Origin: an uncultured Bacilli bacterium
GTDB taxonomy: Bacteria; Bacillota_I; Bacilli_A; RF39; UBA660
NCBI GenBank assembly: GCA_910586295.1
Contig: CAJUGE010000070.1
Coordinates: 17,032-81,031, forward strand
Reading direction: 5' to 3'
Length of the DNA stretch: 64,000 bases
Positions 11,093 through 32,806 of the stretch are shown piece by piece; the stretch's first letter is position 1, and the number at the start of each line of letters is the position of its first letter. The notes below the pieces were generated by a model. That model saw only the letters and a program-made list of their open reading frames with translations, was not told the origin of the DNA and did not search any database. The translations under genes and the position numbers were made by a program.

Positions 11093-13111
11093 ATGAGGAA
11101 AAATAATAGGAAAAAGTATTTTTTAATTACAGGGTTAGTTTTAATATTATTAGTGCTTCTTTTTGGAATATTATATTATGTAAACAATTCTAAGAATAAT
11201 TATTCTTTTGCTGAGAAGAATTGGATTAATAGTAATGTTGATAACATTAAGAATGTAAATGTTCAATCTGGCTTACCTATTTTTAGTGAAAATGGTGAAG
11301 GTGTATTTTATGATTATTTAAGGGAAATGGAAAAAGATACAGGTTTAACATTTAATATTACTGTTAGTTCTGATGGTAATTCTAGTGAATCATATAAGCT
11401 TTTAAATAAGAATGATATTGATAAAAACGACTTAGTCTTTTATACAGACCATTATGTTGTTATTAGTAAGTCTGATAAGCAATTAGTTGATTTATCTAAT
11501 ATTAATGAACAATTAATTGGTGTTATAGGTGAAGATAAAGAATATGTATCTAAGTATTTGAGTGATTATAATTTTGAAATTCAAGATTATGATAATTTTA
11601 CTAAAATGGATGAGGAAATGAATCATTCAATATATTATGCAATTATTCCTATGTATAGATATATGACTGATATAGTGTATAATAAATATAATATTGTGTA
11701 TCATATAGAAGGGCTACATTCTCATTATGTTTTGAGTAAATCTGTTGATAATGATATTTTGAGTAACGTACTCACAAAATTTTATAATAAATGGGAAGAT
11801 GAGATTTATACTAATATAAATAAGCATTTCTTAGCACTTTATTATAAATCTAATAGTTTGAGTGAACTTGAAAGAGAAACAATTACGGGTGATGATTTGT
11901 TAGTAGGTTATATAGAAAATATGCCTTATGAGGGTAAAATCAATAATCATTTTAGTGGTGTTACTAATGAATATTTAAGTTTATTTGCAGATATGACAGG
12001 CGCTACTTATAAATATATTAAGTATAATGATTTAAATAAGTTGACTGAGGCTCTTAATTCTAAGAAAGTTGATTTAGTTCTAAATTATTATAATATTAGT
12101 AGTCCTAGTTATCAATCAAGTGTTGGTCTTGGAAATATAAACTATGTTATTATTACTCATCATGATAATGTGATTCCAGTTGAAAGTTTAGAGAGTATTA
12201 AAGATGATAATATTAAGATGGTTAAAAATACTAAACTATATAATTTTATAAAAGATAAACAAATGGAAGTTCAAGATTATGATAATTATAGAGAGTTATT
12301 TAAAGATATGAATAATAGAGATGTAGTTATAATGGAGAAGAGTACTTTTGAATTTTATAAGAATAGTAAACTAAAAAATTATGTTATTAAATATATAGGT
12401 ACAAGTGATGTTAGTAATTCGTTCTTACTTAATAATGATAATAGAGTACTTAATGATATGTTTAATTTCTATTTGACTACATTAGGAAATAAATCAGTTC
12501 ATAATATGGCTGTAAGAGATTCTTTGCAAGATGTTAATGCTAATGTAATTATTCAGTTTGTAATTAGTAATATAACTTATATTTTAATCTTAGGTTTAGC
12601 AATAGCTTTCTTACTCTTTAAATTTAATAGGAAAGTTAAAGTTACTAAGAAGATTAAGAAAGAAGATAAGATGATGTACTTAGATATTATGACTAATCTT
12701 AAGAATAGAAATTATCTTAATGATAATCTTAACTATTGGGAATCTAATAAGATTTATCCACAATCTATAGTGGTAGTCGATTTGAATAATATTTCTACTA
12801 TTAATGATACTAAGGGGCATGAAGAAGGAGATAAACAAATTAAAGGTGCTGCTGGAATACTTATAAAAACTCAAAGGGAAAATTCTGAAATTATTAGAAC
12901 TGATGGAAATGAATTTTTGATATATTTAGTTGGATATGAAGAAAAACAGATAGTTACGTATGTTAATAAATTACTTAAAGAATTTAAGAATTTACCATAT
13001 GAGTATGGAGCTAGTGTTGGTTATTCTATGATTAATGCAGAGTCTACTACTATTGACGATGCTATTAATGAAGCACTTATTATGATGAGGAGAAATAAAG
13101 GGGAAAAATAA
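11093..13111 (+). CDS. Membrane sensor with a large extracytoplasmic domain between two transmembrane helices and a C-terminal GGDEF-like domain with a degenerate active site
   Basis: The C-terminal region LKNRNYLND...VVVDLNNISTINDTKGHEEGD...IRTDGNEFLIYL has a GGDEF fold, but the signature is RTDGNEF instead of RxGGEEF. Confidence 0.6.
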   Translation: MRKNNRKKYFLITGLVLILLVLLFGILYYVNNSKNNYSFAEKNWINSNVDNIKNVNVQSGLPIFSENGEGVFYDYLREMEKDTGLTFNITVSSDGNSSESYKLLNKNDIDKNDLVFYTDHYVVISKSDKQLVDLSNINEQLIGVIGEDKEYVSKYLSDYNFEIQDYDNFTKMDEEMNHSIYYAIIPMYRYMTDIVYNKYNIVYHIEGLHSHYVLSKSVDNDILSNVLTKFYNKWEDEIYTNINKHFLALYYKSNSLSELERETITGDDLLVGYIENMPYEGKINNHFSGVTNEYLSLFADMTGATYKYIKYNDLNKLTEALNSKKVDLVLNYYNISSPSYQSSVGLGNINYVIITHHDNVIPVESLESIKDDNIKMVKNTKLYNFIKDKQMEVQDYDNYRELFKDMNNRDVVIMEKSTFEFYKNSKLKNYVIKYIGTSDVSNSFLLNNDNRVLNDMFNFYLTTLGNKSVHNMAVRDSLQDVNANVIIQFVISNITYILILGLAIAFLLFKFNRKVKVTKKIKKEDKMMYLDIMTNLKNRNYLNDNLNYWESNKIYPQSIVVVDLNNISTINDTKGHEEGDKQIKGAAGILIKTQRENSEIIRTDGNEFLIYLVGYEEKQIVTYVNKLLKEFKNLPYEYGASVGYSMINAESTTIDDAINEALIMMRRNKGEK

Positions 13112-13112
13112 T

Positions 13113-13991
13113 ATGATAGATAAGATAAAAGATTTTGTTAAAAATGTTTTAGATATTATGAGGAAACCTGAGATGCTTACTTTACCTAGTACACTTGCTT
13201 ACTATTTCGTTTTAAGTGCTGTACCTATTATATCTATAGTACTTTTGATAGCAACTTCTTTTAACTTGTCTGCTTCTTTTATTATAGATTTTATTGCTGA
13301 CAATTTTAGTGAGGATTTGGTAAATCTTCTTACTCCTTTATTTTCTGAACAGACTTTTTCTTTAGGTTTTATGGTTTATCTTGGAGTTTCTTTCTTTCTT
13401 GCCAGTAATGGTAGTGATTCTATAATTGTTGCTTCAAATATGATTTTTAATTTAGAAAATAAGCATTATATTAAAAGAAGAATTAAAGCATTTGGAATAA
13501 CATTAATTATTTTCTTACTTTTTACATTTATGTTGATAGTTCCATTGTTTGGTGAGCAGATTATTGCTATTTGTATAAGTTTGGGTGTTAGAAATTCTAT
13601 TGTTGATGTAATGAAAATGCTTTATCCAGTGTTAAATGTTCCAGTAACTTTAATAGTCATGTATTTTGCAATAAAGCTAATTTACGTTATAGCACCAGAT
13701 GATAAAATTAAAAGTAAATATGTAACTAAAGGTGCTGTATTTACAACTACTCTTTGGTTTATTGTAACCATGATTTATTCTTATTATATTAAAAATCTTG
13801 CAGATTATAGTCATTATTATGCTGGACTTGGTACTATAGTTATGCTTATGGTATGGCTTTATATTTTGGCATTTATATTTGTTATAGGTATAAGCTTGAA
13901 TTATAGAAATGCAACTGAAGAGATAGAGAGAACTAATACTATTAAGTTAAAAGAACTTGAAGAAAGAGTTAGGGCTAGTAAAGTAAAATAG
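13113..13991 (+). CDS. YihY/BrkB-family (formerly RNase BN) integral membrane protein
   Basis: The N-terminal LTLPSTLAYYFVLSAVPIISIVL is characteristic of the YihY family. About six transmembrane helices. Confidence 0.7.
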   Translation: MIDKIKDFVKNVLDIMRKPEMLTLPSTLAYYFVLSAVPIISIVLLIATSFNLSASFIIDFIADNFSEDLVNLLTPLFSEQTFSLGFMVYLGVSFFLASNGSDSIIVASNMIFNLENKHYIKRRIKAFGITLIIFLLFTFMLIVPLFGEQIIAICISLGVRNSIVDVMKMLYPVLNVPVTLIVMYFAIKLIYVIAPDDKIKSKYVTKGAVFTTTLWFIVTMIYSYYIKNLADYSHYYAGLGTIVMLMVWLYILAFIFVIGISLNYRNATEEIERTNTIKLKELEERVRASKVK

Positions 13992-14340
13992 GCAATACTT
14001 TTAATTATGTAGAGACTAGTGTTTCTTACAAAATCGTAAGAGCAAATTGGTCTTTTTTTCTGTATAATTATATTTGTTAAGTGAAGTTAACAAAAAAGTA
14101 ATGAGTAGTTGGTGGAATGCAACTAAGTTATTGTTTAAAATAAGACTAATATTAAGGTGAAGTTTATAATATATGAATAGAACTTCTTTAATTGTTATTA
14201 AGTTAGGTGGTGTTTTTAAAAGAAAGGTTATTGGGAGTGAAGGTGTAAGCATAGTTCTTTGGAAAATAAAGAAAATTAATTTAAGTTTTAATAATTTTTC
14301 ATATACTGGAGAAATATTACAGTTTGGGGTATAATAGTTA

Positions 14341-14737
14341 TTATGGCATTTTTAAAATATTGTGTTATGCCTACATATTTTTATAAATTTAAATATTTGA
14401 TTTGCAGGAGTAAAAAGAGTGATTATATTTCTTTGACATTTGGTAATGTGCCTAATGAGTATAATGAAAAGTTTTTTGACTTATCTAAAGGATAGGATTT
14501 TAACTGTACTTTCTTTTTGGATGAAGATTTTGTTTTTAAGTATAGAGATATAGTTTCTAGAATGTTAACTGATAGTCATTTGGTAGGAGTTTATTCTTGT
14601 TAACATATGAATCCTTGGAGTGTTGATTATTTAAGGGCTAATATGGATTTTATAAATGGTATTAATGTTTTAGAAGAGATTGGTATTTCTGTTAAATTTT
14701 ATAGAGTATTTTCGGAGAATAATTTGTTTAAATTATG
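14341..14737 (+). pseudogene. Remnant of a polysaccharide deacetylase (NodB-type) gene
   Basis: A disrupted frame reads ISLTFGNVPNEYNEKFFDLSKG*DFNCTFFLDEDFVFKYRDIVSRMLTDSHLVGVYSC*HMNPWS. This matches the TFDDGP...ATFF...GHE.G.H..H order with internal stops. A second similar fragment, KINLSFNNFSYTGEILQFGV, lies just upstream. Confidence 0.35.
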
Positions 14738-14839
14738 AAAGAGGAAAAGTTGAAGTCTCTTTAATAACTTTGGAAGTTTTAAGAGAGACTGTACTTGATT
14801 TGATTAGTATGATTTATTGTTTTAGGAGATTAGATAGGT

Positions 14840-15877
14840 ATGATGAAGAATAGGAAATTAAGAATTATATATTTTTTGATATTTTTGATATGCGTTGTAG
14901 GGACTTTTTATGTTGTCTTTAAGAAAAATGATGTTAATTTGATTTTGAGTAATATTTCTAAGACTGATTTTAAATTTATATTTTTGGCAATTTTATGTAT
15001 GTTTGCATATATTAGTGGAGAGGGTATTAATATTAGGCGTGTTCTTGTTACTAGTGGACATAAAGTAAACTTTTTTAGTGCTTTTAAGTATGCAGCAGTA
15101 GGCTTCTTCTTTAGTTCAATTACTCCTTCTGCAACTGGAGGAGATCCTGCTCAACTGTTTTTTATGGCTAAAGATAATCTTCCTGTAACTCACAGTGTTT
15201 TAGCTCTTCTGGTGGAGTTATCTAGCTTTCAGGCAGTTTTATGTATCTTGTCTTTAGTTGGACTTATTGTTAATTTTGATCTGTTAATAAATTCTAGTAG
15301 TATAAAGTATTTTTTAATTTTAGGTATGATTATAAATATTCTTTATTTGACTTTTCTTATAATGATGATTTTTTCTAAAAAAACTGTTATAAAAATTATT
15401 AATTTTATTTATAGAGTTTTTGGTAGAATTTCTAAGAAAAGTGATTTGATTTATGATAAATGTTTAAAACAAGTTGATGATTATCATGAGTGCGCTATTT
15501 ATTTGAAAAGTCATAAGATTGTACTTCTAAAAATCTTTTTGACTACGATGATACAGATGATACTTTATTATAGCGTTCCATACTTTGTTTATAGATCTTT
15601 AGGTTTACAAGGAGAGAACATTTTTACATTTGTACTGTTACAAGCATCTCTTAGTATGGCTATTTCTTATATGCCGATGCCTGGTACAGTAGGTGCTAGT
15701 GAAGGTGCATTTATGTTAGTCTTTAAGTCGCTTTTTCCTGCTAGTGTTTTAAGTAGTGCTATGTTAGTCAGTAGAGGTGTTAGCTTTTATTTGTTTGTTG
15801 TAATTAGTGGATTTATTATTTTAAGTAGCATTATTTATGAAAAATTATGTAAAAAAAATAAGAGTATTTGTGTATAA
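14840..15877 (+). CDS. Flippase-like membrane protein (UPF0104 / lysyl-PG synthase transmembrane-region family)
   Basis: 345 aa with about eight transmembrane helices. The N-terminal LRIIYFLIFLICVVGTFYVVFKK...ILCMFAYISGEGINIRRVL is typical of the PF03706 family. Confidence 0.55.
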   Translation: MMKNRKLRIIYFLIFLICVVGTFYVVFKKNDVNLILSNISKTDFKFIFLAILCMFAYISGEGINIRRVLVTSGHKVNFFSAFKYAAVGFFFSSITPSATGGDPAQLFFMAKDNLPVTHSVLALLVELSSFQAVLCILSLVGLIVNFDLLINSSSIKYFLILGMIINILYLTFLIMMIFSKKTVIKIINFIYRVFGRISKKSDLIYDKCLKQVDDYHECAIYLKSHKIVLLKIFLTTMIQMILYYSVPYFVYRSLGLQGENIFTFVLLQASLSMAISYMPMPGTVGASEGAFMLVFKSLFPASVLSSAMLVSRGVSFYLFVVISGFIILSSIIYEKLCKKNKSICV

Positions 15878-15947: not shown

Positions 15948-18752
15948 ATGAGTTTAAAAGGCCCTTATACTGAGGAAGAGAAAAAAATTATTGAAGAAGA
16001 TGGCTTATACTATGAAATGGGAGAATCTAAATATGAGAAGAAAAAAAGATTTATTTTAATTTTTGTATTCTTTGTCCTTCTTTTAGGACTTACTGCTTTA
16101 GGTACTTGGTCTTTTGTTAAGTATTTTCGTGATAGTACTAATGGATTAAATATCGATTTAAATGGTGACAGGTGGCCAGATCTGAATATTGATTTAGATA
16201 ACGATGGCAAATGCGATGTAAACTGTGATATAGACGGAGATGGTAAGCCAGATATTAATATTAGTTATCCTAAGTATGGAAGATTACATGCAGCAATATT
16301 CAATGTAGATACCGATGGAGATGGCAAACCTGATTGGAACTTAATTAATCAAGATACCGATGGAGATGGCAAATGTGATTTAAACTGCGATATAGATAAT
16401 GATGGGTGGCCAGATACTAATTTAGATTTAGATGGAGATGGCAAGCCAGATATTAATATCGATACAGATGGAGACGGTAAATGCGATTTAAATTGTGATT
16501 TAGATGGAGATATGAAGCCAGATTTAAACATCGATACAGATGGAGACGGCAAATGTGATGTAAACTGTGATACTGATGGCGATGGCAAACCAGATATTAA
16601 TATTACTATAAAAGGTGATCCTGAAGATAAGCCTATATTTAATATCGATATAGATGGAGATGGTAAGCCAGATAAGAATTTGACAAATCAAGATACAGAT
16701 GGAGATGGCAAGTGCGATTTGAATTGTGATATTGATAAAGATGGATGGCCAGATACTAATTTAGATATAGACGGAGATGGCAAGCCAGATATTAATATCG
16801 ATACAGATGGAGACGGTAAGTGTGATTTAAATTGTAATACTGATGGAACAGGTAAATGTAATTATAATTGTGACACTGATGGAGACGGAAAACCAGATAC
16901 TAATATAGATACAAATGGTAATAAGCTTCCAGATATGAATTTGGATATTGATGGAGATGGCAAACCAGATGTTAATGTAGATAAAGATGGGGATGGCAAA
17001 CCAGATGATAATCTAATGAATCAAGATACAAATAAAGATGGTATTTGTGATTTAAATTGTGATACAAATGGAGATGAGTGGCCAGATACTAATATAGACA
17101 TAGACGGAGATGGTAAACCAGATATTAATATAGATGTTGATAATGATGGAGTATGTGATTATAATTGTGATGCTGATGGAGATGGCAAACCAGATGATAA
17201 TCTTATGAATCAAGATAAAGATGGAGATGGCAAGTGCGACTTGAATTGTGATACAGATGGAGATGGCAAGCCAGATATTAATATTGATGCAAACGGAGAC
17301 GGTAAATGTGATTTGAATTGTGACACTGATGGAGATGGTAAGTGTGATTTAAATTGTGATACAAACGGAGACGGTAAGTGTGATAAGAATTGTGATATAA
17401 ATGGCGATGACAAGTGTGACAGAAATTGTTATGATAACAATGATAAATGTATAAAGAATTGTGACACTGACGGAGACGGTAAGTGTGATACAAATTGTTA
17501 TGAGAATCCGAATAAACCAGATTTGTGTACAAAAAATTGTGATACAAATGGTGATGGCAAATGTGATTTGAATTGCGATACTGATGGAGATGGTAAGTGT
17601 GATAAGAATTGTGACACTGATGGAGATGGCAAGTGCGATGTTGATTGTTATGATAACAATGATAAATGTATAAAGAATTGCGATACCGATGGAGACGGTA
17701 AGTGTGATACAAATTGTTATGAGAATCCAGATAAACCTGGAGTTTGTACAAAAAATTGTGATTTTGACGGAGACGGTAAGTGTGATTTAAATTGTGATAC
17801 CGATGGAGATGGCAAGTGCGATGTGAATTGTTATGAGAATCCAAGTAAACCAGATGTGTGTACAAAGAATTGTGATACAGATGGCGATGGTAATTGTGAT
17901 GTGAATTGTCATGAGAATCCAAGTAAACCAGATGTGTGTACAAGAAACTGTGATTATGATGGAGATGGCGAGTGTGATTTAAACTGTAACGAAGATCCAA
18001 ATAAACCAGGGGTGTGTACAAAAGATTGTGATACAGATGGCGATGGTATTTGTGACTTGAATTGTACTTGTAAGGAAAATTGTGATGATAATAAGGATGG
18101 GGTTTGTGATAGAAATTGTTACGATGATCCAAATAATCCTAATGTATGTACTAAAAACTGTGATACTGATGGAGACGATAAATGTGATGTCAATTGTTAT
18201 GAGAATCCAGATAATCCTAATATGTGTACTAAGAACTGTGATACTGATGGAGATGGGGTTTGTGACTACAATTGTTATGATGAAAATGGAAACTGTACTA
18301 AAGAGTGTGACACTGATGGAGATGGTAAGTGTGATATTGAATGTGATGATGAGGTTGTTCTTGGTCAATTAACATTTGTTGATACTAATAAACTTAATAG
18401 TAACGCTTTGGTTCCAGGATGGACAGGAAGTAAAACATTTATTGTTATGAATAATAGTACTTCAGTAGTTAAGTATAAGATATCTTGGACTAATATTATT
18501 AATACTTTCACTTCAACTAATAATTTATATTATGGTTTGGTTAGAAATGGAAATACTCTTGCTGATATAGAGACTGCTAGAGTTCCTAGAAATGTTGATC
18601 AAGGTAAGAGTCTAGTAGATAATGTTTCTATTCAACCAGGTGAAATTCATACTTATACTATTACTTATGAGTTTAGAAATACTGAATTTAATCAAGATGT
18701 AGATAAGGATAAGACATTTAGTACTAAGCTTAGAGTTGATACTTTAAATTAA
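15948..18752 (+). CDS. Giant membrane-anchored protein of 934 aa. It has a short cytoplasmic N-terminus, one transmembrane helix, more than 40 Asp- and Cys-rich Ca-binding-type repeats of the form DxDGDGK(P/C)DxN(I/C)D (thrombospondin type 3 or dockerin-like), and a C-terminal TasA/camelysin-like domain.
   Basis: The transmembrane helix is FILIFVFFVLLLGLTALGTWSFV, with a KKKR flank on its cytoplasmic side. Repeats such as DTDGDGKCDLNCD and DIDGDGKPDINI recur throughout. The C-terminus, GQLTFVDTNKLNSNALVPGWTGSKTFIVMNNSTS...QDVDKDKTFSTKLRV, aligns with the TasA mature N-terminus (ATFASGTLDL...KPGDKLTKDFQFENNGS) and with the three small proteins downstream. Confidence 0.8.
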   Translation: MSLKGPYTEEEKKIIEEDGLYYEMGESKYEKKKRFILIFVFFVLLLGLTALGTWSFVKYFRDSTNGLNIDLNGDRWPDLNIDLDNDGKCDVNCDIDGDGKPDINISYPKYGRLHAAIFNVDTDGDGKPDWNLINQDTDGDGKCDLNCDIDNDGWPDTNLDLDGDGKPDINIDTDGDGKCDLNCDLDGDMKPDLNIDTDGDGKCDVNCDTDGDGKPDINITIKGDPEDKPIFNIDIDGDGKPDKNLTNQDTDGDGKCDLNCDIDKDGWPDTNLDIDGDGKPDINIDTDGDGKCDLNCNTDGTGKCNYNCDTDGDGKPDTNIDTNGNKLPDMNLDIDGDGKPDVNVDKDGDGKPDDNLMNQDTNKDGICDLNCDTNGDEWPDTNIDIDGDGKPDINIDVDNDGVCDYNCDADGDGKPDDNLMNQDKDGDGKCDLNCDTDGDGKPDINIDANGDGKCDLNCDTDGDGKCDLNCDTNGDGKCDKNCDINGDDKCDRNCYDNNDKCIKNCDTDGDGKCDTNCYENPNKPDLCTKNCDTNGDGKCDLNCDTDGDGKCDKNCDTDGDGKCDVDCYDNNDKCIKNCDTDGDGKCDTNCYENPDKPGVCTKNCDFDGDGKCDLNCDTDGDGKCDVNCYENPSKPDVCTKNCDTDGDGNCDVNCHENPSKPDVCTRNCDYDGDGECDLNCNEDPNKPGVCTKDCDTDGDGICDLNCTCKENCDDNKDGVCDRNCYDDPNNPNVCTKNCDTDGDDKCDVNCYENPDNPNMCTKNCDTDGDGVCDYNCYDENGNCTKECDTDGDGKCDIECDDEVVLGQLTFVDTNKLNSNALVPGWTGSKTFIVMNNSTSVVKYKISWTNIINTFTSTNNLYYGLVRNGNTLADIETARVPRNVDQGKSLVDNVSIQPGEIHTYTITYEFRNTEFNQDVDKDKTFSTKLRVDTLN

Positions 18753-18888: not shown

Positions 18889-20571
18889 ATGGATAGAGAA
18901 AGATATGAGCAAATTAGAAGAGAAGAAGAAAAGAGACGTATACTTGAGGAGGATGGATTATATTTTAGAGATCCTAAGAATAAAAAGCAAAAAACCAAGC
19001 AAAAGGTTATGATGATATTTTCTTTAATTATATTTATGGGTGCAACTGTTGCGACGACTTTAGTCATTATCAATTATTTTCATGCTAGAAAGACATTAGC
19101 TGTTAATATCGATACCGATGAAGATGGATGGCCAGATTTAAACGTTGATGTTAATGGTGATGGCAAATGTGAAGTTAATTGTGATACAGATGGTGACAAT
19201 AAGCCAGATACTAATATAGGTTATAAAAAAACTTTAATTGCATTTTTTAATATAGATATAGATGGAGATGGCAAACCAGATAGTAATCTAATAAACCAAG
19301 ATATAAATGGTGATGGCAAGTGTGACTTGAATTGTGATACAAATGGTGATGGATATCCTGATACAAATTTAGATTTTAGTAGTACTGGAGTTGCGAGAAT
19401 TAATATTGATAATAATAATGATGGAAAGTGTGATTTGAATTGTGATGTTTTAGGTTTAAGGACTGCTCAGGTAAATATAGATACTGATAAAGATGGCAAG
19501 CCAGATGTTAATATCGATATTAATAATGATGATAAACCAGAAGTTAATGTTACATATGGAAGTGATTATGAAAATCCAATTTTTGGTATAGATACTAATG
19601 GAGATGGCAAGCCAGATGAAAATTTAATAAACCAGACGAAAAATGGTAAGTGTGAGGTTAATTGTGTTTTAGAAAATGGTTACTTTCCAGTTTTAAATGT
19701 TGATATGGATGGTGACGGAGAAGCAGACATAAATCTTGATACTAATGGAGATAATTTGGCTGAGTTAAATATAGATATAATTGGCGATGGTAAGTGTGAT
19801 TTAAATTGTGATACAGATAATGATGGTATAGCAGATATTAATGTTAGCTTGGGAAATAATGTTTACATAAATCTTGATTATGATAGAGATGGTAAAGCAG
19901 ACATAAATCTTGATACTAATGGAGATAATATTCCAGATAAAAATTTAATGAATCAAGAAGAAAATGGTAAGTGTATTTTGAATTGTGATTTAGATGGTAA
20001 TGGAATACCTGATATAAATATAGACATTGATGGAGATGGCAAAGCAGATGTTAATATTGATTTAAATGATGATGGTAAGGCTGATGCTAATCTTGATACT
20101 GATGATGATAGAAAACCTGATAGAGATATAATTGATACTAAAGCCGATATAGTAAAGGATGTCCTAATTTCGGCTAAAGAATTGTCTTATAGTTTGGATT
20201 ATTTAGATAAGTATCCAAATTTTAGTGAAATGATTCCTGGATGGAAAGGTACAAAAACCTTTAAGGTTACTAATAATAGTAGTGAGACTATTATCTATGA
20301 TATTGAATGGGATGATTTAGTTAATACTTTTACTTATGAAAATAGACCTTTTTATAGTGTTGTAAAGGATGGTAATACTTTAGTTGCTATTCAAAATGGT
20401 AGATTTTCGTATTCTGCTAATAATGGTGAAAAGTTTGTTAGTAGTATTAGTATAAAACCTGGTGAAACTCATAATTATGTAATAAACTATGAATTTAATA
20501 AAAATAATACTGATCAGAGTGTTGATAATGGCAAGATAATTTTTGGAAGGTTAAAGATTGTCACTAAATAA
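18889..20571 (+). CDS. Paralog of the giant repeat protein, 560 aa, with the same architecture: cytoplasmic N-terminus, transmembrane helix, DxDGDGK Ca-binding repeats, and a TasA-like C-terminal domain.
   Basis: EEDGLYF plus a K-rich stretch plus the transmembrane helix MMIFSLIIFMGATVATTLVII. Repeats such as DIDGDGKPDSNL and DGDGKCDLNCD. C-terminal IPGWKGTKTFKVTNNSS...QSVDNGKIIFGRLKIV. Confidence 0.8.
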   Translation: MDRERYEQIRREEEKRRILEEDGLYFRDPKNKKQKTKQKVMMIFSLIIFMGATVATTLVIINYFHARKTLAVNIDTDEDGWPDLNVDVNGDGKCEVNCDTDGDNKPDTNIGYKKTLIAFFNIDIDGDGKPDSNLINQDINGDGKCDLNCDTNGDGYPDTNLDFSSTGVARINIDNNNDGKCDLNCDVLGLRTAQVNIDTDKDGKPDVNIDINNDDKPEVNVTYGSDYENPIFGIDTNGDGKPDENLINQTKNGKCEVNCVLENGYFPVLNVDMDGDGEADINLDTNGDNLAELNIDIIGDGKCDLNCDTDNDGIADINVSLGNNVYINLDYDRDGKADINLDTNGDNIPDKNLMNQEENGKCILNCDLDGNGIPDINIDIDGDGKADVNIDLNDDGKADANLDTDDDRKPDRDIIDTKADIVKDVLISAKELSYSLDYLDKYPNFSEMIPGWKGTKTFKVTNNSSETIIYDIEWDDLVNTFTYENRPFYSVVKDGNTLVAIQNGRFSYSANNGEKFVSSISIKPGETHNYVINYEFNKNNTDQSVDNGKIIFGRLKIVTK

Positions 20572-20705: not shown

Positions 20706-21359
20706 ATGAACGATAACAGAGGACAAACTATTTTCTTATCAGTAATTGGTATTGCTACTTTATTAGTTGCTATTATAGGTGCTACATTTGCATATTTCAC
20801 TACTACAATGGATGGTACTAAAGCTGGCGTAACAGCTACTACTGGTACTTTAGGTGCTGTTACTTATACTGCTGAGGCTTTAAATCTTCCTAATATTTTA
20901 CCAGGTAAGACTTCTGAAGAGAAGAGTGTTACAGTTAGTTTAGGAACTTCTGATTTTGATGTTAATTATGTATGCAATTTAGAGGTAACTGGTAACGAAG
21001 TTACAGATATGTTCTTAAAGGTTAGTGGTGAAAATATTATTGCTGCTGCTAATAATCAAAGATTACCTTTGGTTGTGTATCCTACTTTTGGTGAAGATGG
21101 TACAACTGAGTTAACTCCAGCTGGTACAGCTCAAAAGATTAAGATTGCTGAAGGAACTTTAAAATCTGGTGAGTCTAAGACTATGAAGTATGCAATTACT
21201 TTCCAAGAAACTGGTTCAGAGCAAAATGCTCAACAAGGTAAAAGATTCAATGCTACAGTTAGTTGTGGTTTAGAGAGTGCTGATGGTGTTTATTATAATG
21301 ATGCTAATCAAGGTGGAACTACTACTAAACCTACAGGAACACCAACTCCACAACCTTAA
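20706..21359 (+). CDS. TasA/camelysin-family secreted protein with a SipW-cognate signal peptide (217 aa)
   Basis: Signal LSVIGIATLLVAIIGATFAYFTTT, then TATTGTLGAV (compare TasA GGGTWAAFND...ATFASGTLDL). Core LPGKTSEEKSVTVSLGTS...QQGKRFNATVS. C-terminal tail YYNDANQGGTTTKPTGTPTPQP. Confidence 0.75.
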   Translation: MNDNRGQTIFLSVIGIATLLVAIIGATFAYFTTTMDGTKAGVTATTGTLGAVTYTAEALNLPNILPGKTSEEKSVTVSLGTSDFDVNYVCNLEVTGNEVTDMFLKVSGENIIAAANNQRLPLVVYPTFGEDGTTELTPAGTAQKIKIAEGTLKSGESKTMKYAITFQETGSEQNAQQGKRFNATVSCGLESADGVYYNDANQGGTTTKPTGTPTPQP

Positions 21360-21628: not shown

Positions 21629-22225
21629 ATGGAAGAAGAGAAAAAGAATAAAAATTCAAGATTAAAAGAAATTATTATTGCAGTTATTCCCGTTTTGTCT
21701 TTTATTGCTGTTACGATTGGAACAACATATGCAGCTTACATGGCTAGTGTTGTAGGTAATGAGAAGAATGGCGAAACAGTTTTGAAGAGTGCTCGTGTTT
21801 ATGCGATGTTTAATGCTACAGATAGTATTGATTCAGAGAATATTTTACCTGGTTGGAGCAGTACTTTAAATTTCACAATTGTAAACACTAGCCCAGAAGA
21901 TAATTTGTATGCTAATTATACACTAGCTTGGGAGATTGAAGAAAATACAATTAATGATGATAATTTTGTTTATACATTAGAGTGCACTAGTACTAAAGAA
22001 GGTAAAGAAATAAATGAAAGTGAAAAGAATACACTTATTAAAGTATCTAATTCTAGAAAAGTTCCTACTATTAGTACAAATATCGGAACTGGAATGATTA
22101 ATACTGGAGTTACTCATCATTGTCAATTAAAAGTTATGTTAAGAGAAAGTGGGACTCCTCAAGATTCTTTACAAGGCAAGACATTTAAAGGTAAAATAGT
22201 TGCTAAAGGAGATCCTAATGTATAA
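21629..22225 (+). CDS. TasA/camelysin-family secreted protein with a SipW-cognate signal peptide (198 aa)
   Basis: Signal IIAVIPVLSFIAVTIGTTYAAYMAS. Core LPGWSSTLNFTIVNTSPED...LQGKTFKGKIV. Confidence 0.7.
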   Translation: MEEEKKNKNSRLKEIIIAVIPVLSFIAVTIGTTYAAYMASVVGNEKNGETVLKSARVYAMFNATDSIDSENILPGWSSTLNFTIVNTSPEDNLYANYTLAWEIEENTINDDNFVYTLECTSTKEGKEINESEKNTLIKVSNSRKVPTISTNIGTGMINTGVTHHCQLKVMLRESGTPQDSLQGKTFKGKIVAKGDPNV

Positions 22226-22251: not shown

Positions 22252-22872
22252 ATGAATGGCAAAAAGTATGAAATATATTTAAGTGTTATAACTATTATGA
22301 CTGTATTAGTAACAGCCGTTGGAGTATCGTTTGCTTATTTTACTGATGGTATATCTGGGACAGAAGGAGCCATTTCTTCTACAACTGCTTCTATTGGTAG
22401 TGTAACTTTTGACGGTGGTCAAGATTTCTCTATGTCAACAGAAATTGAACCAGGGTGGAGTGCTACTAAGACTTTTTCTATTGAGGTTTCTCCTTCTGTA
22501 GTAGATCAAGTAATATATATAAGATTAGATTATGTTAATGGGTTTAAAGATTTGGAACTTAATGTTAATGGCACTGTCGGTGAGGGAAATGGTATTAATG
22601 GTGCTAAGGGAAGTGTTTCCCTTGTTAAAGAAATGTCAGCTGATTCAGCGAGTAATACTACAACATTAGTTGAATTAACAGTACCTGCCAGTGATAATAC
22701 TATTAAGTATAATTATACATTAACTGCAAGTTTTCCTGATACAAATCAAAATCAAAATTATGATCAAGGAAAAACTTTTGAGGCAACATTATATGCAGAT
22801 TTAGGAGAAAGTGATATTTATTATAATGATGCTAATCAAGGTGGGACAACAACTAAACCTAATGCTCAGTAA
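22252..22872 (+). CDS. TasA/camelysin-family secreted protein with a SipW-cognate signal peptide (206 aa)
   Basis: Signal LSVITIMTVLVTAVGVSFAYFTDG. Core EPGWSATKTFSIEVSPS...DQGKTFEATLY. The C-terminal tail YYNDANQGGTTTKPNAQ is shared with the 20706 gene. Confidence 0.75.
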   Translation: MNGKKYEIYLSVITIMTVLVTAVGVSFAYFTDGISGTEGAISSTTASIGSVTFDGGQDFSMSTEIEPGWSATKTFSIEVSPSVVDQVIYIRLDYVNGFKDLELNVNGTVGEGNGINGAKGSVSLVKEMSADSASNTTTLVELTVPASDNTIKYNYTLTASFPDTNQNQNYDQGKTFEATLYADLGESDIYYNDANQGGTTTKPNAQ

Positions 22873-22955: not shown

Positions 22956-25043
22956 ATGTTTAAAGATATAAATAAAAAATTTAAAGTTGAACGTTTAAAA
23001 GTTGCTTATAAAAAACTACTTAGGAAAATAAGAAAATATTTTTCAACAAATATTTTGTTTTTGACTTATCTTATTACTTCTGTTTTTATTAGTTTTCTCT
23101 TAAGATATTTTACTATTGGTATTATAAATGATTTTAAAGCAATTTTTTGTGATTTAGTTGTAGTTATGTTGCTTGGTTCTTTTGGTTATTTAGTTAAACC
23201 CAAACATCAATTTAAATATTTTTTAGGACTTAGCATTTTTAATACATTTCTATGTATATTAAATCATATTTATTATACTTTTTATATGAGCTTTGTTAGT
23301 GTTAGTTTGCTTGGCACTTTATCAATGTTGGGAGAAGTGAGTGATTCTGTTACAAATAAATTGGAAATCTTATATTTCATTTATTTAATTGCTCCCTTAA
23401 TGTTAATAGTAGTTAATAGGTTTCTTTCTAAGAGGAAATACCATTTTATAGTAGGTAAATATGAAAATGGTAAGAAAATGTTTATTAGAACTTCTTTACT
23501 TTCATTTATATGTTTAGTATTTTTGTTAACTACTTTATCAAACTCTGAGGGAAGTAGACTTGTGAAACAGTGGAATAGGGATTTTATAGTGCAAAGGTTT
23601 GGTTTGTATTTCTATACTGCTAATGATTTTATACAAAGTATTCAACCATCTATTAGTCCGATGTTTGGATATGATAGTGCGGCTAAAATGTTTAGAGATT
23701 TTTATTCGGATAAAGATTATACTAAAAATAAAAATGAATATACTGATATATTCAAGGGAAAGAATGTAATATTTATTCATGGTGAGAGTATTCAAAATTA
23801 CTTAATAGATTTAGAGGTTAATGGAATAGAAATAACACCAAATTTAAATAAAATTGCACATGAAGGGTTATATTTTTCTAGTTTTTATCCACAAATAAGT
23901 ATAGGAACTAGTAGTGATACAGAATTTACTTTAAGTACTAGTTTACTTCCTAGTTCTAGTGGAACAGTATTTGTTAATTATGCTAACAGGAATTATGAAA
24001 CAATACAAAAGAAGTTTAAGTCACTAGGATATTATACGTTTAGTATGCATGCTAATGCAGCAAGTTATTGGAATAGAGAAACTATGTATAAATCTTTAGG
24101 ATATGATAAGTTTTATGCAAAAGATAGTTTTATTGTTCCAGAGGATACTGATGATGCAAATTTTATAGGACTTGGACTTTCTGATAAATCTTTCTTTAAA
24201 CAGATTATGCCAATACTTGAAGAACTAAGGAATAGTGAGCAGCCTTTTATGGGCACAGTAATAACTTTAAGTAATCATAGTCCGTTTGCAGATGTTGACA
24301 AATATGGTAAATTAGACTTTAGTATTACATTTGAAAAAGGCACAGGAGAATTTGATAATAATGGAGTAGAAATAAGAGAGACAGTGACTGTTCCTTATTT
24401 AGAGAATACTGAGATGGGTAATTATTTGAAGAGTGCTCATTATGCAGATGAGGCTTTAGGTGAGTTTTTTGAGGCACTCAAGGTTTCTGGAATGTTTGAA
24501 GATACTGTTATAGTGTTTTATGGAGATCATGAGAGTAAGTTAGGAAAAAAGAATTTGAGTTTGTTATATAATTATGATCCAATGACTGAAAGTATTAAGA
24601 GTGAAGATGATCCAACATTTGTAAGCTTTGATAATTATAAATATGATTTAATTAAGAATACACCGTTAATTATTTGGACAGGTGATGATACTTTGAAAAG
24701 AGAGGTTACTGATGTTATGGGGATGTGGGATGTAATGCCTACAATTGCAAATATGTTTGGATTTGATTATAAATATGCCCTTGGAAACGATATCTTTTCT
24801 GATAATGAGAAGTTAGTAGTATTTCCTAATGGAGATGTTTTAACAAATAAGGTATTTTATAATAATTTAAGAGATGAATATATACCTTTAACGGAAGAAC
24901 CTATTGATACTCAATATATTGAGAGATTAAAAGAGTATGCAGAAGTAAGGCTTGATGTAAGTAAGTCTATTATAGTACATGATTTAATTGAGAAGGAAGA
25001 GAATAATTTAGAAAGGGTGATACTTAATGAAAAAGACAAATAA
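22956..25043 (+). CDS. ltaS: Lipoteichoic acid synthase family protein (LtaS-type sulfatase)
   Basis: 695 aa. Five N-terminal transmembrane helices plus an extracellular sulfatase domain (NVIFIHGESIQN...TPNLNKIAHEGLYFSSFY...SNHSPF). Confidence 0.75.
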   Translation: MFKDINKKFKVERLKVAYKKLLRKIRKYFSTNILFLTYLITSVFISFLLRYFTIGIINDFKAIFCDLVVVMLLGSFGYLVKPKHQFKYFLGLSIFNTFLCILNHIYYTFYMSFVSVSLLGTLSMLGEVSDSVTNKLEILYFIYLIAPLMLIVVNRFLSKRKYHFIVGKYENGKKMFIRTSLLSFICLVFLLTTLSNSEGSRLVKQWNRDFIVQRFGLYFYTANDFIQSIQPSISPMFGYDSAAKMFRDFYSDKDYTKNKNEYTDIFKGKNVIFIHGESIQNYLIDLEVNGIEITPNLNKIAHEGLYFSSFYPQISIGTSSDTEFTLSTSLLPSSSGTVFVNYANRNYETIQKKFKSLGYYTFSMHANAASYWNRETMYKSLGYDKFYAKDSFIVPEDTDDANFIGLGLSDKSFFKQIMPILEELRNSEQPFMGTVITLSNHSPFADVDKYGKLDFSITFEKGTGEFDNNGVEIRETVTVPYLENTEMGNYLKSAHYADEALGEFFEALKVSGMFEDTVIVFYGDHESKLGKKNLSLLYNYDPMTESIKSEDDPTFVSFDNYKYDLIKNTPLIIWTGDDTLKREVTDVMGMWDVMPTIANMFGFDYKYALGNDIFSDNEKLVVFPNGDVLTNKVFYNNLRDEYIPLTEEPIDTQYIERLKEYAEVRLDVSKSIIVHDLIEKEENNLERVILNEKDK

Positions 25044-25689
25044 GAAAGCAGTAAATAAAAAAATAAACAAAAATAGAGTATTTTACTTTGCAGTTATTGT
25101 AATTGCTGTTATAATAGTAGCTGTGACTTCTGTTAAGGTTGTGTTTGATTTCTTTGTCGGTGATTCAAGAGAAATTCAATCTAAGAAAGAGCTGGATAAT
25201 TTGGAGTTATATGGTTATACTTTAGATGATTTAGATACACCTTTATATAAAACATATTTTGATGAATTGAAGGATATTTTAAATAAAGACGAATTAGATT
25301 GGGAGCAATATGCAACTGGTTTAACTAAGATATTTGTGGCAGACTTTTATACTCTAAGTAATAAGATAACTAGTAGTGATATAGGTGGTGTGGAATTTAT
25401 ACATATAGATATGGTAGATAATTTTATAATGCACGCTGGAGATACTATGTATAATCATGTTAAGAATAATGTTTATGGAGATAGAGTTCAAGAACTTCCT
25501 ACAGTAAGTGATGTTACAATAGGTGAAATCATAAGTGAGAATTATACATATAATGATAATAGTTATGAAGCATATAAAGTTAGTGTTACTTGGGAATATG
25601 AGAAAGATTTGGGGTATGATAAAACTGGAACTTTCTATTTGATAAAGGACAATAATAAATTGAATGTTGTGCAAAAACTAGGAGAATAG
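25027..25689 (+). CDS. Hypothetical membrane-anchored protein (220 aa)
   Basis: K-rich N-terminus plus a single transmembrane helix. The start overlaps the ltaS end, and the stop abuts tilS. Confidence 0.45.
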   Translation: MKKTNKKAVNKKINKNRVFYFAVIVIAVIIVAVTSVKVVFDFFVGDSREIQSKKELDNLELYGYTLDDLDTPLYKTYFDELKDILNKDELDWEQYATGLTKIFVADFYTLSNKITSSDIGGVEFIHIDMVDNFIMHAGDTMYNHVKNNVYGDRVQELPTVSDVTIGEIISENYTYNDNSYEAYKVSVTWEYEKDLGYDKTGTFYLIKDNNKLNVVQKLGE

Positions 25690-29057: not shown

Positions 29058-30337
29058 ATGTCTTTAAGGAAAGAAGAATATGTAGAAAGATTAGTTGATA
29101 AAAAAATAGATAAGTATTTGACTTTATTTGTGCAGTTCATTTATATGGTCCTAAATGGTGTGGGAAAACTTGGACTGCACTAAATCATTCTAATAGTGTT
29201 ACTTATATGACTTTAAAGGATAAAAGAGCTTTAGCGATGGAAAATCCTAAGTTTATTTTCGATGATGATAGACCACAGTTAATTGATGAATGGCAGTTAG
29301 TGCCTAGTATTTGGGATGCAGTTAGGCATGAGTGTGATGTTGATAAAAACAAGGGGAAGTTTATTTTGACTGGCTCTACTACTTTAATTAAGAATGATAA
29401 AGATGAGGTGTTTCATACTGGGATGGGTAGAATAGTAGACTGTAGAATGTATCCTATGAGTTGTTATGAGTCTGGAGACTCTAGTGGCATCGTTAGTATT
29501 TTAGATATGCTTAATCAAAAGATTGAGAATAAGGGATTCAAGAGTTTAGAACTTCCAGAAATCGCTAGGCTAATAGTAAGAGGTGGTTGGCCAGAAAATA
29601 TAAAGGTTAGTGATGAAGATATTACGATATTGCCTAAGATGTATTTAGAGTCTATCATAAATAAAGATATAAATGAAAGAAAAGATAAAAAAAGAGATTC
29701 TAATAAAATGAGTATGCTTATTAGAGCACTTGCAAGAAATGAGTCTAGTGTGGTTAGTTTTAATACTTTAGTGAAAGATATAGAAGAATATGAAAGTGAA
29801 GAAGAGCTTTTAACGAGTAGGATTACGGTTGCTGATTATTTAAGTGTTTTAGATAGTTTATATTTAACTTTGAATCAAGAAGCATTTAGTATTAATTATC
29901 GTTCTTCTAAAAGAATTGGTAAATCACCTAAGAGACATTTTGTGGATCCTAGTTTAGCTTGTGCTAGTTTAGGCTTGAATGTTTCTAAGCTTATGAATGA
30001 TTTTAATACTTTTGGTCTTATGTTTGAGTCGCTTGTACTTCGTGATTTAAAAATATATATGGATACTACCAATGGTAAAGTATTTTATTTTAGAGATAAT
30101 ATTAGTGGAGCTGAAGTGGATGTTATTTTAGAGTTTGCTGATTCTAGTTATGCAGCAGTAGAGGTTAAACTTAGTTTTAATTATATTGAAGAGGCAAAGA
30201 AAAGTTTAAAGAAATTTTATGATAATGTTTCTGTTAAGCCTAAATTTATGTGTATTATAGTTGGACATTACGATGCTATTTGTAGGGATGATGAAACTGG
30301 TATATATATAGTTCCTATAAATGCTCTTAAACCTTAG
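29058..30337 (+). pseudogene. DUF4143-type AAA+ ATPase (COG1373 family) interrupted by a frameshift near 29114-29135
   Basis: Frame 0 reads MSLRKEEYVERLVDKKIDKYLTLF and stops at 29183. Frame 2 continues ICAVHLYGPKWCGKTWTALNH (Walker A) through ...IVGHYDAI. The shift lies in a TTTATTTG run. It may be a true pseudogene or a sequencing error. Confidence 0.55.
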
Positions 30338-31993: not shown

Positions 31994-32806
31994 ATGGGAA
32001 AGGTTATATCACTTGTAAATCAAAAAGGTGGGGTAGGCAAAACAACCACTAGTATTAACTTAAGCAGCGCTTTAGGACATTTGGGAAAAAAAGTTTTGTT
32101 AATTGACTTTGACCCTCAGAGTAATAGTACTACTGGGATAGGTCTTAATAAGGCTGATATTAATAAAAGTATTTATGATGTTATTATGCATAGTTGTGAT
32201 ATTAAGGAGGCAATACTTAAAACTAAGTTTAAAAACCTTAGTGTTATTCCTTCTATGATATATCTTAGTGGTGCTGAGATGGAGCTTATGCAAAATGCTA
32301 TGACAGAACAAGACTATATAATAGGTGATCAATTAAAATTGCAGATTGATACTATTAGAGATAGATATGATTATATTTTGATAGATTGTCCTCCTACTTT
32401 AGGTGTTTTGACTACTAATGCTTTAGCGGCTAGTGATAGTGTTTTAATACCAGTGCAGTGTGAGTATTATTCACTAGAGGGAGTGACACAGTTACTAAAT
32501 ACAATTCTTCTTACTCAAAGTAAAATTAATCCAAAACTTGATATAGAAGGTGTACTACTAACTATGCTTGATGGTAGAACTTTGGTTGGATTAGAAGTTG
32601 TGGAAGATGTTAGAAAGTTTTTTAAAGAAAAAGTATTTAATACAATTATTCCAAGACTAGTAAGATTAGTTGAAGCACCAAGTCATGGAAAACCAATATT
32701 AGAATATGATCCGAAGTGTAGAGGTGCACTTGCTTACATTAATTTAGCGAAGGAAGTGATTGAAAGAGATGGAAAACAAGAGGAAAGCGCTAGGGAGGGG
32801 GCTTGA
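31994..32806 (+). CDS. parA: Chromosome partitioning ATPase ParA/Soj
   Basis: Deviant Walker A NQKGGVGKTTT, 270 aa. Immediately followed by parB. Confidence 0.9.
   Translation: MGKVISLVNQKGGVGKTTTSINLSSALGHLGKKVLLIDFDPQSNSTTGIGLNKADINKSIYDVIMHSCDIKEAILKTKFKNLSVIPSMIYLSGAEMELMQNAMTEQDYIIGDQLKLQIDTIRDRYDYILIDCPPTLGVLTTNALAASDSVLIPVQCEYYSLEGVTQLLNTILLTQSKINPKLDIEGVLLTMLDGRTLVGLEVVEDVRKFFKEKVFNTIIPRLVRLVEAPSHGKPILEYDPKCRGALAYINLAKEVIERDGKQEESAREGA

Follow-up and report, generated by a model that had tools for sequence, protein, structure and literature searches.

The Locus and Its Two Repeat Proteins

The DNA considered here, hereafter called the window, is a stretch of 64,000 nucleotides from an uncultured Bacilli bacterium (RF39; UBA660; GenBank assembly GCA_910586295.1, contig CAJUGE010000070.1, positions 17,032 to 81,031 of the forward strand), and all coordinates given below are positions in this 64-kb window. 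Its plus strand carries two adjacent open reading frames (ORFs), gene A (15948..18752) and gene B (18889..20571), whose products hold long arrays of a short, Asp-rich unit between an N-terminal hydrophobic helix and a C-terminal domain that is predicted to resemble the fibre protein TasA. Judged by sequence and profile searches, the repeat is genuine, has no model in Pfam or NCBIfam, and differs from the repeats of thrombospondins and dockerins.

The 934-aa product of gene A belongs to the class 1 stalk-and-head proteins defined further below. It begins with a charged and probably cytoplasmic segment (residues 1–34; 15948..16049) that ends in KKKR and contains the motif IIEEDGLYY, which is common to A and B. 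A single hydrophobic helix follows (residues 35–53; 16050..16106; mean Kyte-Doolittle hydropathy 2.68) and then the sequence GTWSF, which may resemble the cleavage region of TasA; by its sequence the helix could be either a signal-anchor or a SipW-type signal peptide. The first part of the array (residues 62–482; 16131..17393) mixes 12-residue Dx[DN]xDG units of the Cys and the Pro type, interrupted here and there by a longer spacer. The second part (residues 483–800; 17394..18347) is made of Cys-type units throughout, mostly 23–28-mers in which a Cys-type 12-mer is extended by a linker of 11–14 residues (YENPxKPxVCTKNC or YDNNDKCIKNC) that adds another CxxxC.

An earlier first-pass annotation, made from the sequence alone, had described a single transmembrane (TM) helix followed by more than 40 repeats of 12–13 residues with a calcium-coordinating DxDxDG core, and this anatomy holds up well: besides the one helix, A can be parsed into 45 units, 25 of them exactly 12 residues long and built as D-x-D-G-D-G-K-[C/P]-D-x-N-[C/I/L]. 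Its strict D.[DN][GKN]D[GDEM] cores, most often 12 residues apart, number 43, where 1000 shuffled sequences gave a mean of 1.7 and a maximum of 7. Each unit consists of the Dx[DN]xDG loop with an additional Asp at position 9, three residues past the Gly, and then x-N-x. The composition is extreme (205 Asp, 112 Asn, 98 Gly and 78 Cys; net charge −140), and every one of the 78 cysteines sits in a CxxxC pair, giving 39 pairs against a mean of 6.4 and a maximum of 16 in the 1000 shuffles. Cys pairs in about half of the units, and an enrichment of Cys towards the C-terminus, had likewise been proposed, and in the parse 28 of the 45 units are of the Cys type, without exception from residue ~447 on.

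Gene B encodes, as had been stated, a shorter paralog with the same type of unit and fewer cysteines; its length is 560 aa. Its TM helix lies at residues 43–61 and is followed by ~29 units with 6 CxxxC pairs and a TasA-like head at residues 433–560; it is 52% identical to A and colinear with it across the first ~420 residues. The description of these proteins as "giant" is appropriate only in a relative sense, since relatives reach 1901 aa with 122 Cys pairs. The repeat DNA of gene A also contains ORFs in other frames that could be mis-called as genes, namely 17278–18132 (minus strand, 284 aa), 17979–18368 (minus strand, 129 aa) and 18082–18372 (plus strand, 96 aa), all of which look like frame artefacts rich in H/Y/N or I/T.

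Reality of the Gene and Its Length Variants

The possibility that the ORF of gene A is a product of mis-assembled, collapsed tandem repeats had been raised together with the original description, and some observations are of the kind that would be expected from it: the contigs L013, L014, L015 and L017 stop inside A or B, a 176-aa fragment of A (P0140) occupies a contig of 1158 bp, and the gene comes in three lengths, with a junction in the window allele that coincides with an exact repeat. Short-read assembly evidently struggles at this locus. Nevertheless, gene A is real and no artefact, and only its exact copy number of repeats in the window is in doubt. The gene was recovered in at least five independent assemblies. 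An identical copy is found in the metagenome-assembled genome (MAG) GCA_949488705.1, orthologs are present in independent assemblies from ENA and JGI, the lengths of orthologs elsewhere being 1086, 973 and 1122 aa, and searches have brought up, besides the orthologs, hundreds of homologs.

The comparison of alleles is instructive. In the JGI metagenome 3300006217, the B protein is 100% identical to that of the window, and the A ortholog of 1086 aa is identical at 933 of 934 residues in the shared part and has an extra in-frame Cys-rich block of 152 aa, bringing it to 104 Cys in 52 pairs. At the DNA level, this allele differs from A of the window by 8 single-nucleotide polymorphisms (SNPs) and one gap of 456 nt, and the edges of the block without counterpart in the window allele are marked by a 36-nt exact direct repeat (~17789–17824, plus strand) that corresponds to one NCDTDGDGKCDV unit. 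The length of 1086 aa is found gap-free in three assemblies of diverged strains (22–26 SNPs apart), and the 456-nt block is present on a partial fourth contig as well, while the 973-aa allele of one JGI assembly lacks exactly one higher-order unit of 339 nt. Codon differences between the alleles are mostly synonymous (19:3, 17:8 and 14:7), and the DNA copies of the repeat within the array are only 61–83% alike, which indicates that the array is old. In the light of these data, an ORF created by mis-assembly is scarcely credible. The 934-aa length in the window represents either a real deletion variant or a local collapse of the assembly, and 1086 aa is the commonest form.

Coupled Cysteines at Positions 8 and 12

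The earlier statement that the cysteines occupy fixed positions was sharpened by a survey of 3707 unit windows (overlapping registers included) from 122 proteins. Cysteine was present at positions 8 and 12 together in 227 units, at position 8 alone in 4, at position 12 alone in 1, and at neither in 3475, so that C8 and C12 are strictly coupled. Pro8 was in turn combined with Ile, Leu or Val at position 12 in 1479 of 1562 units. The strictness of this coupling implies that positions 8 and 12 act as one structural element, which, going by the sequences, could be filled by a small hydrophobic pair or by a Cys pair in the form of a disulfide staple or a thiolate site.

The pairing extends to the larger relatives of A, since five large class 1 proteins have all of their cysteines in CxxxC pairs (244/244, 132/132, 108/108, 132/132 and 114/114). 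The first of these counts belongs to the largest class 1 protein seen, which is encoded in a MAG of rabbit-gut Bacilli (L027:4729–10434) and has 1901 aa, ~130 units, 517 Asp, 244 Cys in 122 CxxxC pairs, and a TasA-like head. A smaller protein with a Cys-type stalk, P0330 (464 aa), has a second and different Cys-rich stretch (residues ~65–160) ahead of its 12-mers, with C..C and C...C segments such as CKGEACTYVICNEKKNTCSYKICNGSKC.

With 78 to 244 cysteines per protein, a function in metal or redox chemistry comes to mind, in which the thiol pairs together with the carboxylates would bind soft metals (Zn, Cu, Fe or Cd) or act as an extracellular redox buffer, and the protein would chiefly store or detoxify metals. 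Free thiols are plausible in what is presumably an anoxic habitat; all cysteines of A and of the five relatives are in CxxxC pairs, and successive pairs would come to lie close together in the all-Cys arrays if the units stack. Against this, the Cys pair is exchanged for Pro plus Ile, Leu or Val in an identical scaffold with the same modelled conformation (see below), which speaks for a structural role, the architecture of anchor, stalk and head and the operon context favor a function at the surface or in a fibre, and no metal-handling genes are adjacent. We consider a metal store very improbable.

Relation to Known Calcium-Binding Repeats

The first-pass annotation had assigned the array to the thrombospondin type 3 (TSP3) or dockerin-like repeats. 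TSP3 repeats are Asp-rich, disulfide-bonded and contiguous, bind Ca2+ and have little regular secondary structure, and a dockerin is a domain of ~70 residues with two Ca2+ loops and a helix after each; TSP3 repeats, dockerins and EF-hands have an acidic ligand at position 12, where the unit of A has C, I or L. The DxDxDG-type core is common to the array and these repeats, and the array has cysteines at fixed positions. However, the Pfam models TSP_3 and Dockerin_1 were never listed, neither for A or B (E ≤ 1), nor for repeat fragments (E ≤ 10), nor for 40 members of the family (E ≤ 0.01), and a PDB sequence search with the repeat region returned only weak matches to filamin and polcalcin, with no thrombospondin or dockerin among them. 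The dockerin architecture of two loops, each with its helix, in ~70 residues is likewise not found, as DSSP assigns no helix in the confident region of the model described below and the units are contiguous 12-mers.

The closest Pfam profiles all remain below threshold, namely FG-GAP_3 (23.9 bits, cutoff 26.9), FG-GAP (18.1 bits, cutoff 22.1) and EF-hand_1. The FG-GAP matches cover only the loop part of the profile, and the period of 12 residues does not agree with the four-stranded blades of ~60 residues from which a propeller would be built. The only NCBIfam matches of the array, to the MSCRAMM proteins ClfA, ClfB, SdrC and SdrD, were rejected as compositional, with 98–111 bits against cutoffs of 999–2500 and alignments confined to the Ser-Asp (SD) repeat region. 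In the literature library that was searched, no paper was found with the motif string "DGDGKPD".

The attribution to the general class of Dx[DN]xDG loops fares much better, given the 43 strict cores where 1.7 are expected and the Asp at unit position 9. The Dx[DN]xDG motif together with a nearby extra Asp can complete a Ca2+ site, and thrombospondin and dockerins are both listed among the contexts of the motif (PMC3123361). Since the unit has the motif and the further Asp, Ca2+ binding is plausible at up to 45 sites in A. The loop motif of the first description stands, and its family assignment is not supported: that the array is homologous to TSP3 or dockerin repeats and shares their fold is quite improbable in view of the missing profile, PDB-sequence and helix support.

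Predicted Structure of the Array

The structure of residues 62–800 of A was predicted with AlphaFold2 from a 20-row alignment of repeat regions, and the resulting confidence (predicted local distance difference test, pLDDT) had a mean of 59 and was strongly bimodal. Residues ~72–320 reached 75–93 and residues 322–481 reached 52–71, and the Cys-rich residues 482–771, a region covered by few homologs, were at 28–44, with a rise to 57–66 at the end of the array. In the confident part, DSSP shows a beta-bridge pair every 12 residues; 26 of the bridge residues occupy position 10 of the unit and 22 occupy position 12 (9 Cys and 13 Ile or Leu). As the bridges occur alike in units with Cys and with Ile or Leu, both unit types are predicted to adopt one conformation, and the units to stack.

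The model bears on a different view of the array, that of a disordered acidic spacer spanning the wall, i.e., a flexible charged linker comparable to the Ser-Asp repeats of staphylococcal MSCRAMMs. Its position next to the anchor is that of the SD repeats, the rejected NCBIfam matches were to just these regions of ClfA, ClfB, SdrC and SdrD, the composition is extremely acidic (net −140), and the Cys-rich half has low pLDDT. A spacer that depends on composition has, however, no need for the conservation by position of Gly4, Gly6, Pro8 or Cys8, Asn11 and a hydrophobic residue or Cys at 12. Positions 8 and 12 are moreover strictly coupled, synonymous SNPs predominate, and over ~250 residues AlphaFold gives a pLDDT of 75–93 with periodic bridges. 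We regard a disordered spacer as improbable. Intrinsic disorder had been named at the outset as the outcome that would speak against a calcium-binding array, and here the picture is divided, with an ordered stack predicted at ~72–320 and values of 28–44 over the Cys-rich residues 482–771 that are uninformative; at least the N-terminal half of the array is predicted to be an ordered stack.

A geometrical precedent is provided by the beetle antifreeze protein TmAFP (TCTxSxNCxxAx; PDB 1EZG), in which each coil of 12 residues winds once around a very narrow beta-helix and a disulfide within the coil fills the core (PMC8038014). By analogy only, such a geometry agrees with the bridges every 12 residues and with the coupling of C8 and C12 in A. 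A more far-reaching and, in our estimation, unlikely proposal is that the array constitutes a possibly unseen fold, a minimal solenoid with 12 residues per turn, whose core would be a column of Ca2+ together with either the Pro/Ile pair or a Cys-Cys staple or thiolate metal site, and which would serve uncultured gut Bacilli as a ruler of tunable length that sets the distance of a TasA-like fibre or sheath from the membrane. If this were true, recombination between units would yield the 934, 973 and 1086 aa within the species and 430–1900 aa across relatives, and the system would parallel, in bacteria, the surface canopies that are anchored by stalks and would represent a new principle for the anchoring of TasA-type fibres.

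The Head and Its Small Paralogs

The C-terminal domain of A (residues 804–934; 18357..18749, plus strand) was recognized from its AlphaFold model, from Foldseek and from its homology to paralogs. The model is an eight-strand sandwich (pLDDT 88, pTM 0.79), and Foldseek against the PDB placed the TasA fibre 8AUR at the top (E 4.9e-4, probability 1.0), followed by TasA-like filaments of archaea (the 0406 filament of Sulfolobus and the bundling pili of Pyrobaculum) and by chaperone-usher pilins, all of which are fibre subunits of the donor-strand type. A PDB sequence search with the head profile gave no match.

Directly downstream of B, on the plus strand, lie three genes for small secreted TasA-like proteins. 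The first (20706..21359, 217 aa) has a signal peptide ending in ATFAYFTT and matches Pfam Peptidase_M73 with 26.1 bits (cutoff 22.5) and a hidden Markov model (HMM) built from the heads only with E 3.2e-6; the second (21629..22225, 198 aa) was identified by its alignment and the same HMM (E 1.4e-15); and the third (22252..22872, 206 aa), found on 37 contigs in public data, has the signal end VSFAYFTD and an E-value of 1.8e-11. The heads of A and B (~130 residues) align with all three and share with them the motifs PGW..TKTF.V.N.S and Q..DQGKTF. Proteins of ~190–220 aa like these three form a family with 713 matches, in which 119 of 143 checked members have the signal peptide end ATFAYFTT. According to model and alignment, then, the C-terminal domain of A is a predicted TasA-like beta-sandwich, paralogous to the three secreted proteins downstream. 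The NCBIfam TapA model TIGR04087 reaches 14.5 bits with the N-terminus of B, a failure against its cutoff of 80, and does not match A; with the SipW-signal model TIGR04088, the neighbours of the class 1 gene in L006 score 14.9–15.6 bits (cutoff 19).

Two Classes of Homologs

A first homolog search returned 728 matches, which fall into two classes, and an exhaustive comparison of a 196-aa block of units with 1.84 billion cluster representatives yielded 1459 proteins with E ≤ 1e-3, of which 442 had E ≤ 1e-10; lengths of 2000–4260 aa, with the unit block near the C-terminus, are frequent among the matches. Class 1, to which A and B belong, has the N-terminal hydrophobic helix, a first unit at a median of 13 residues behind it, and a conserved C-terminal domain of ~130 aa; of the 139 proteins in which three or more CxxxC pairs occur, 130 carry this TasA-like domain, and a few Cys-type stalks end in other small beta-sandwich heads. 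Class 2 consists of large clostridial surface proteins, attributed among other sources to Clostridioides difficile, Oscillospiraceae, Emergencia and Anaerotruncus. Their N-terminal parts contain domains of the adhesin type (Big_2, Big_3_5, MucBP, Flg_new, a lectin domain, Beta_helix_3), and a Cys-free block of D(T/I)DGDGKPD(I/V)NI units stands directly ahead of an LPXTG motif or TM anchor, the last unit ending at a median of 48 residues before the C-terminus in 33 C-terminally anchored homologs. None of 37 C-terminally anchored proteins had Cys units.

By its place in these sequences, the Cys-free repeat is recognizable as a stalk module beside the C-terminal anchor of large Firmicutes surface proteins. 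Extender regions stiffened by Ca2+ are a general strategy of adhesins (PMC7493085). Although the unit is not described in Pfam or NCBIfam, it is present in ~1,460 protein clusters, and its definition would improve the annotation of many "hypothetical" adhesins.

Gene Neighbourhood in the Window and in Relatives

In the window, the genes follow each other in the order GGDEF, YihY/BrkB, a gap, flippase-like, A, B, the three small TasA-like genes and LtaS-like, and the same order is kept in all sampled strains of the species and in a sister species, whose A ortholog has 1122 aa and 54 pairs. Upstream on the plus strand are a membrane protein with a GGDEF diguanylate-cyclase domain (11093..13111; TIGR00254, 63 bits) and, directly before A, a flippase-like membrane protein (14840..15877; TIGR00374, 81 bits, Pfam LPG_synthase_TM). 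Directly downstream of the small genes lies, also on the plus strand, an LtaS-like protein of the sulfatase family (22956..25043), which remains below the cutoff of NF053595 (E 3.7e-85, 286.7 bits against 970) and has the precomputed Pfam domains LtaS_N and Sulfatase. Ahead of the flippase-like gene is an ORF-poor gap of 850 nt (13991–14840), in which ORFs of 53 and 46 aa are called in other strains, and one contig (L016:1137–2500, Logan SRR27022924) has an insertion sequence (IS) element, with a transposase of the rve family and HTH_Tnp, between B and the first small TasA-like gene. Rfam detected no cyclic di-GMP riboswitch in the window, the GGDEF neighbour notwithstanding, and a promoter and terminator scan together with Rfam was uninformative on the operon structure. 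A 220-aa ORF (25027–25689) was suspected to be sipW and was rejected.

In other genomes, the company of class 1 genes is more telling. In L004 and L006, the gene directly downstream encodes a signal peptidase of the archaeal/SipW type (TIGR02228, 89–90 bits, cutoff 51.85; the second-best model is Bacillus SipW), and SipW-like genes are also found downstream of class 1 genes in L018, L023, L024, L025 and L026. Small genes that are TasA-like or have an AYFT signal adjoin class 1 genes in the window and in L006, L022, L023, L026, L028, L029 and L033. The full set of small AYFT-signal/TasA-like genes, then the class 1 gene, then the SipW-type peptidase is present in L006, L023 and L026, an arrangement that mirrors the tapA-sipW-tasA logic of B. 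subtilis (PMC9674648). By our own tally, 12 of 20 distinct class 1 loci are linked to TasA or SipW genes. The class 1 loci with a named source are all from MAGs of uncultured Bacilli or Firmicutes of animal guts.

A second kind of company has led us to consider an alternative in which the fibre plays no part and the protein is a ruler or tether of the cell-wall or division machinery that sets the distance from the membrane to the wall or surface layer. Genes of the envelope are consistently found next to it: its neighbours in the window are LtaS-like and flippase-like; FtsEX and Peptidase_M23 are found upstream of the class 1 gene in L004 and L018, FemAB in L006, and PBP2 (PBP_dimer/Transpeptidase/PASTA), MraY and FtsW directly beside it in L019, L020 and L021, a position that we take to be comparable to the site of the bitopic FtsL in dcw clusters. 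In L007, a PBP2-type gene is situated two genes downstream, past a sensor kinase and a response regulator. The stalk length also varies within and between species. In a small genome, however, housekeeping genes of the envelope may be neighbours by accident; the head resembles TasA, and the partners that recur most tightly are SipW and small TasA-like genes. A ruler that is independent of the fibre is an improbable reading.

Proposed Function and Mechanism

Everything beyond the anatomy of the sequence is prediction. With about an even chance, in our judgement, A and B are exported proteins with a rod and a head that belong to a TasA/SipW-type fibre system, in which a spacer stiffened by Ca2+ and stapled by Cys presents the TasA-like head so as to anchor or nucleate the fibre. 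Extracellular Ca2+ would fill the Asp loops, offset the net charge of −140 and turn the array into a stiff rod; at 4.8 Å per stacked unit, rods of ~20–26 nm would result, with ~22 nm for A and ~26 nm for the 1086-aa allele. Such a length is comparable to the thickness of the Gram-positive wall. The Cys pair that takes the place of the small hydrophobic pair would staple the turns, as a disulfide or as a thiolate metal site, and the rod would be a spacer at the anchoring end, as is the Cys-free repeat in wall-anchored Firmicutes adhesins. The head would then join a polymer of the small TasA-like subunits by donor-strand complementation and tether or nucleate the fibre at the cell, in a role like that of TapA. 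In the TasA fibre, the strand at the N-terminus of a subunit is donated to the one that follows, and TapA has an accessory role in tethering or nucleation (PMC9674648). As the N-terminus of the head is tied to the rod, it could accept a strand and could not freely donate one, which would make it a terminal, tethering subunit.

This scheme depends on the fate of the N-terminal segment, which may be kept as a membrane anchor, the option that the sequences lead us to favor, or cut by a SipW-type peptidase. In the latter case, the N-terminus would be a SipW-type signal peptide, and the mature protein, consisting of a short aromatic N-terminus, rod and head, would leave the membrane and be built into the fibre or chained head-to-tail, with the new N-terminus (FVKYF...) as donor strand and the head as acceptor, giving fibres with long rod spacers or cross-links. 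SipW-type peptidase genes do adjoin class 1 genes even at loci that showed no small TasA-like gene in the vicinity (L004, L018, L025). The signal-like end is more frequent in class 1 proteins than among the signals of class 2 (counts below), and the N-terminus of B has its very weak TapA match. On the other hand, the stretch ahead of the helix has an unusual length for a signal peptide that is cut off (34–42 residues in A and B; in class 1 the TM helix starts at a median of residue 39, and in a subgroup at 80–123), the array borders on the hydrophobic segment in the way that it borders on the C-terminal anchor in class 2, the strict signal motif is absent from most class 1 proteins, and there is no SipW gene in the window. 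A released subunit is hence somewhat unlikely.

Several points weigh against an anchored rod that presents its head to a fibre. A signal end like that of the small paralogs, which occurs in 137 of 137 small proteins and in 0–2 of 52 class 2 signals, is found in 28–42 of 152 class 1 proteins, so that the protein may be released and not anchored. TIGR04088 matches neither A nor B nor the three small proteins of the window, which reach none of the NCBIfam models of SipW signals, and tblastn with SipW-like sequences found no SipW homolog in the 64-kb window or the allelic contigs; 8 of the 20 class 1 loci have no TasA or SipW gene nearby, four of these 8 being located beside PBP2-MraY-FtsW. The match of the A head to 8AUR is modest (TM-score 0.55 normalised to the query, root-mean-square deviation 6.9 Å), and the heads of A and B have no Pfam Peptidase_M73 match. 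The Cys-rich half, which is the most distinctive part, was modelled with a pLDDT of 28–44 on a thin alignment, the AlphaFold model was built without ions, and the geometry of one unit per turn, the rise of 4.8 Å and the C8–C12 contact are inferred from the DSSP periodicity only. Finally, the host is presumably an anaerobe, and extracellular disulfides are not guaranteed there.

Donor-strand fibres of the TasA type are a main protein scaffold of Gram-positive and archaeal biofilms, and to our knowledge TapA of Bacillus offers the only understanding of how they are attached to the cell. The locus of gene A suggests another way of attachment in gut Bacilli that are abundant though uncultured, namely through a TasA-like domain on a long and probably Ca2+-stiffened stalk. 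A solenoid of 12-residue calcium loops in which the cysteines, up to 244 in one protein, are strictly paired would, if true, be of interest to structural biology and protein design, and it raises the question of how an anaerobe manages more than 100 extracellular Cys pairs.

Other Features of the Window

Some observations concern the remainder of the window. A 305-aa ORF at 65–982 (plus strand) matches only the C-terminal part of the UvrD helicase profile; a full-length gene of the UvrD/PcrA type (5249–7330, plus strand) lies a few kb downstream, with an Abi_2 (abortive-infection-like) gene on the opposite strand between them (3786–4751). The gene for an AAA_14/DUF4143 ATPase (29207–30337; also L008, L011 and L014) varies between strains, being 376, 426 or 366 aa long or split into 121 and 232 aa, and an adjacent 431-aa gene without a Pfam match varies as well (420–431 aa). 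The genes parA/parB and ssb are found at 31994–33656 and 39833–40318, and the GC skew falls from ~+0.4 to ~0 over 38–54 kb, where the genes turn to the minus strand, so this region may be near a replication landmark. The three Rfam matches that exceed the gathering score, at 49535–49724 (minus strand), 50739–50788 (plus strand) and 60141–60189 (minus strand), comprise a T-box leader and the ssNA-helicase RNA motif, the latter in two copies.

Comparison with Known Systems

Among known systems, the TasA/TapA/SipW system of Bacillus subtilis (Peptidase_M73; 8AUR) resembles the present one in the fold of the head, in the paralogous small secreted proteins, and in the SipW/AYFT operons of relatives. 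A and B are not sequence relatives of TapA, the similarity to TasA is limited to the fold and a remote profile, and the head is fused behind a rod; we know of nothing like the repeat stalk in descriptions of TapA or TasA.

With the extenders of RTX/Bap-type adhesins (MpIBP RII, SiiE BIg) and the Ser-Asp stalks of MSCRAMMs, the array has in common that a long tandem array on the side of the anchor projects a distal binding domain, and in adhesin extenders it is calcium that stiffens the array (PMC7493085, PMC4083281). The extenders are made of Ig-like domains of 90–110 residues with Ca2+ in the linkers and the SD repeats of dipeptides, whereas the unit of A is a bare loop of 12 residues.

TmAFP shares the period of 12 residues and the two cysteines per unit, but their spacing is i,i+6 as compared with i,i+4 in A, it has no Ca2+ loops and its function is ice binding; neither sequence similarity nor fold similarity to the A array was detected. 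The TSP3 calcium wire (TSP_3; 1UX6), to which the fold comparison likewise found no match, resembles the array in its Asp-rich contiguous repeats and fixed cysteines, and the unit of A differs by its length, the CxxxC spacing within a 12-mer, its bacterial Firmicutes lineage and its role as a stalk.

The Dx[DN]xDG loops as a class (the EF-hand-like loops of Rigden and Galperin, including the FG-GAP "calcium blades") have the same linear motif and extra Asp. In A, these loops recur every 12 residues without helices or propeller blades between them, 45 in a row and up to ~130 in relatives. The protein would combine elements of known kinds, namely Dx[DN]xDG calcium loops, the stalks of adhesins and the fibres of the TasA family.

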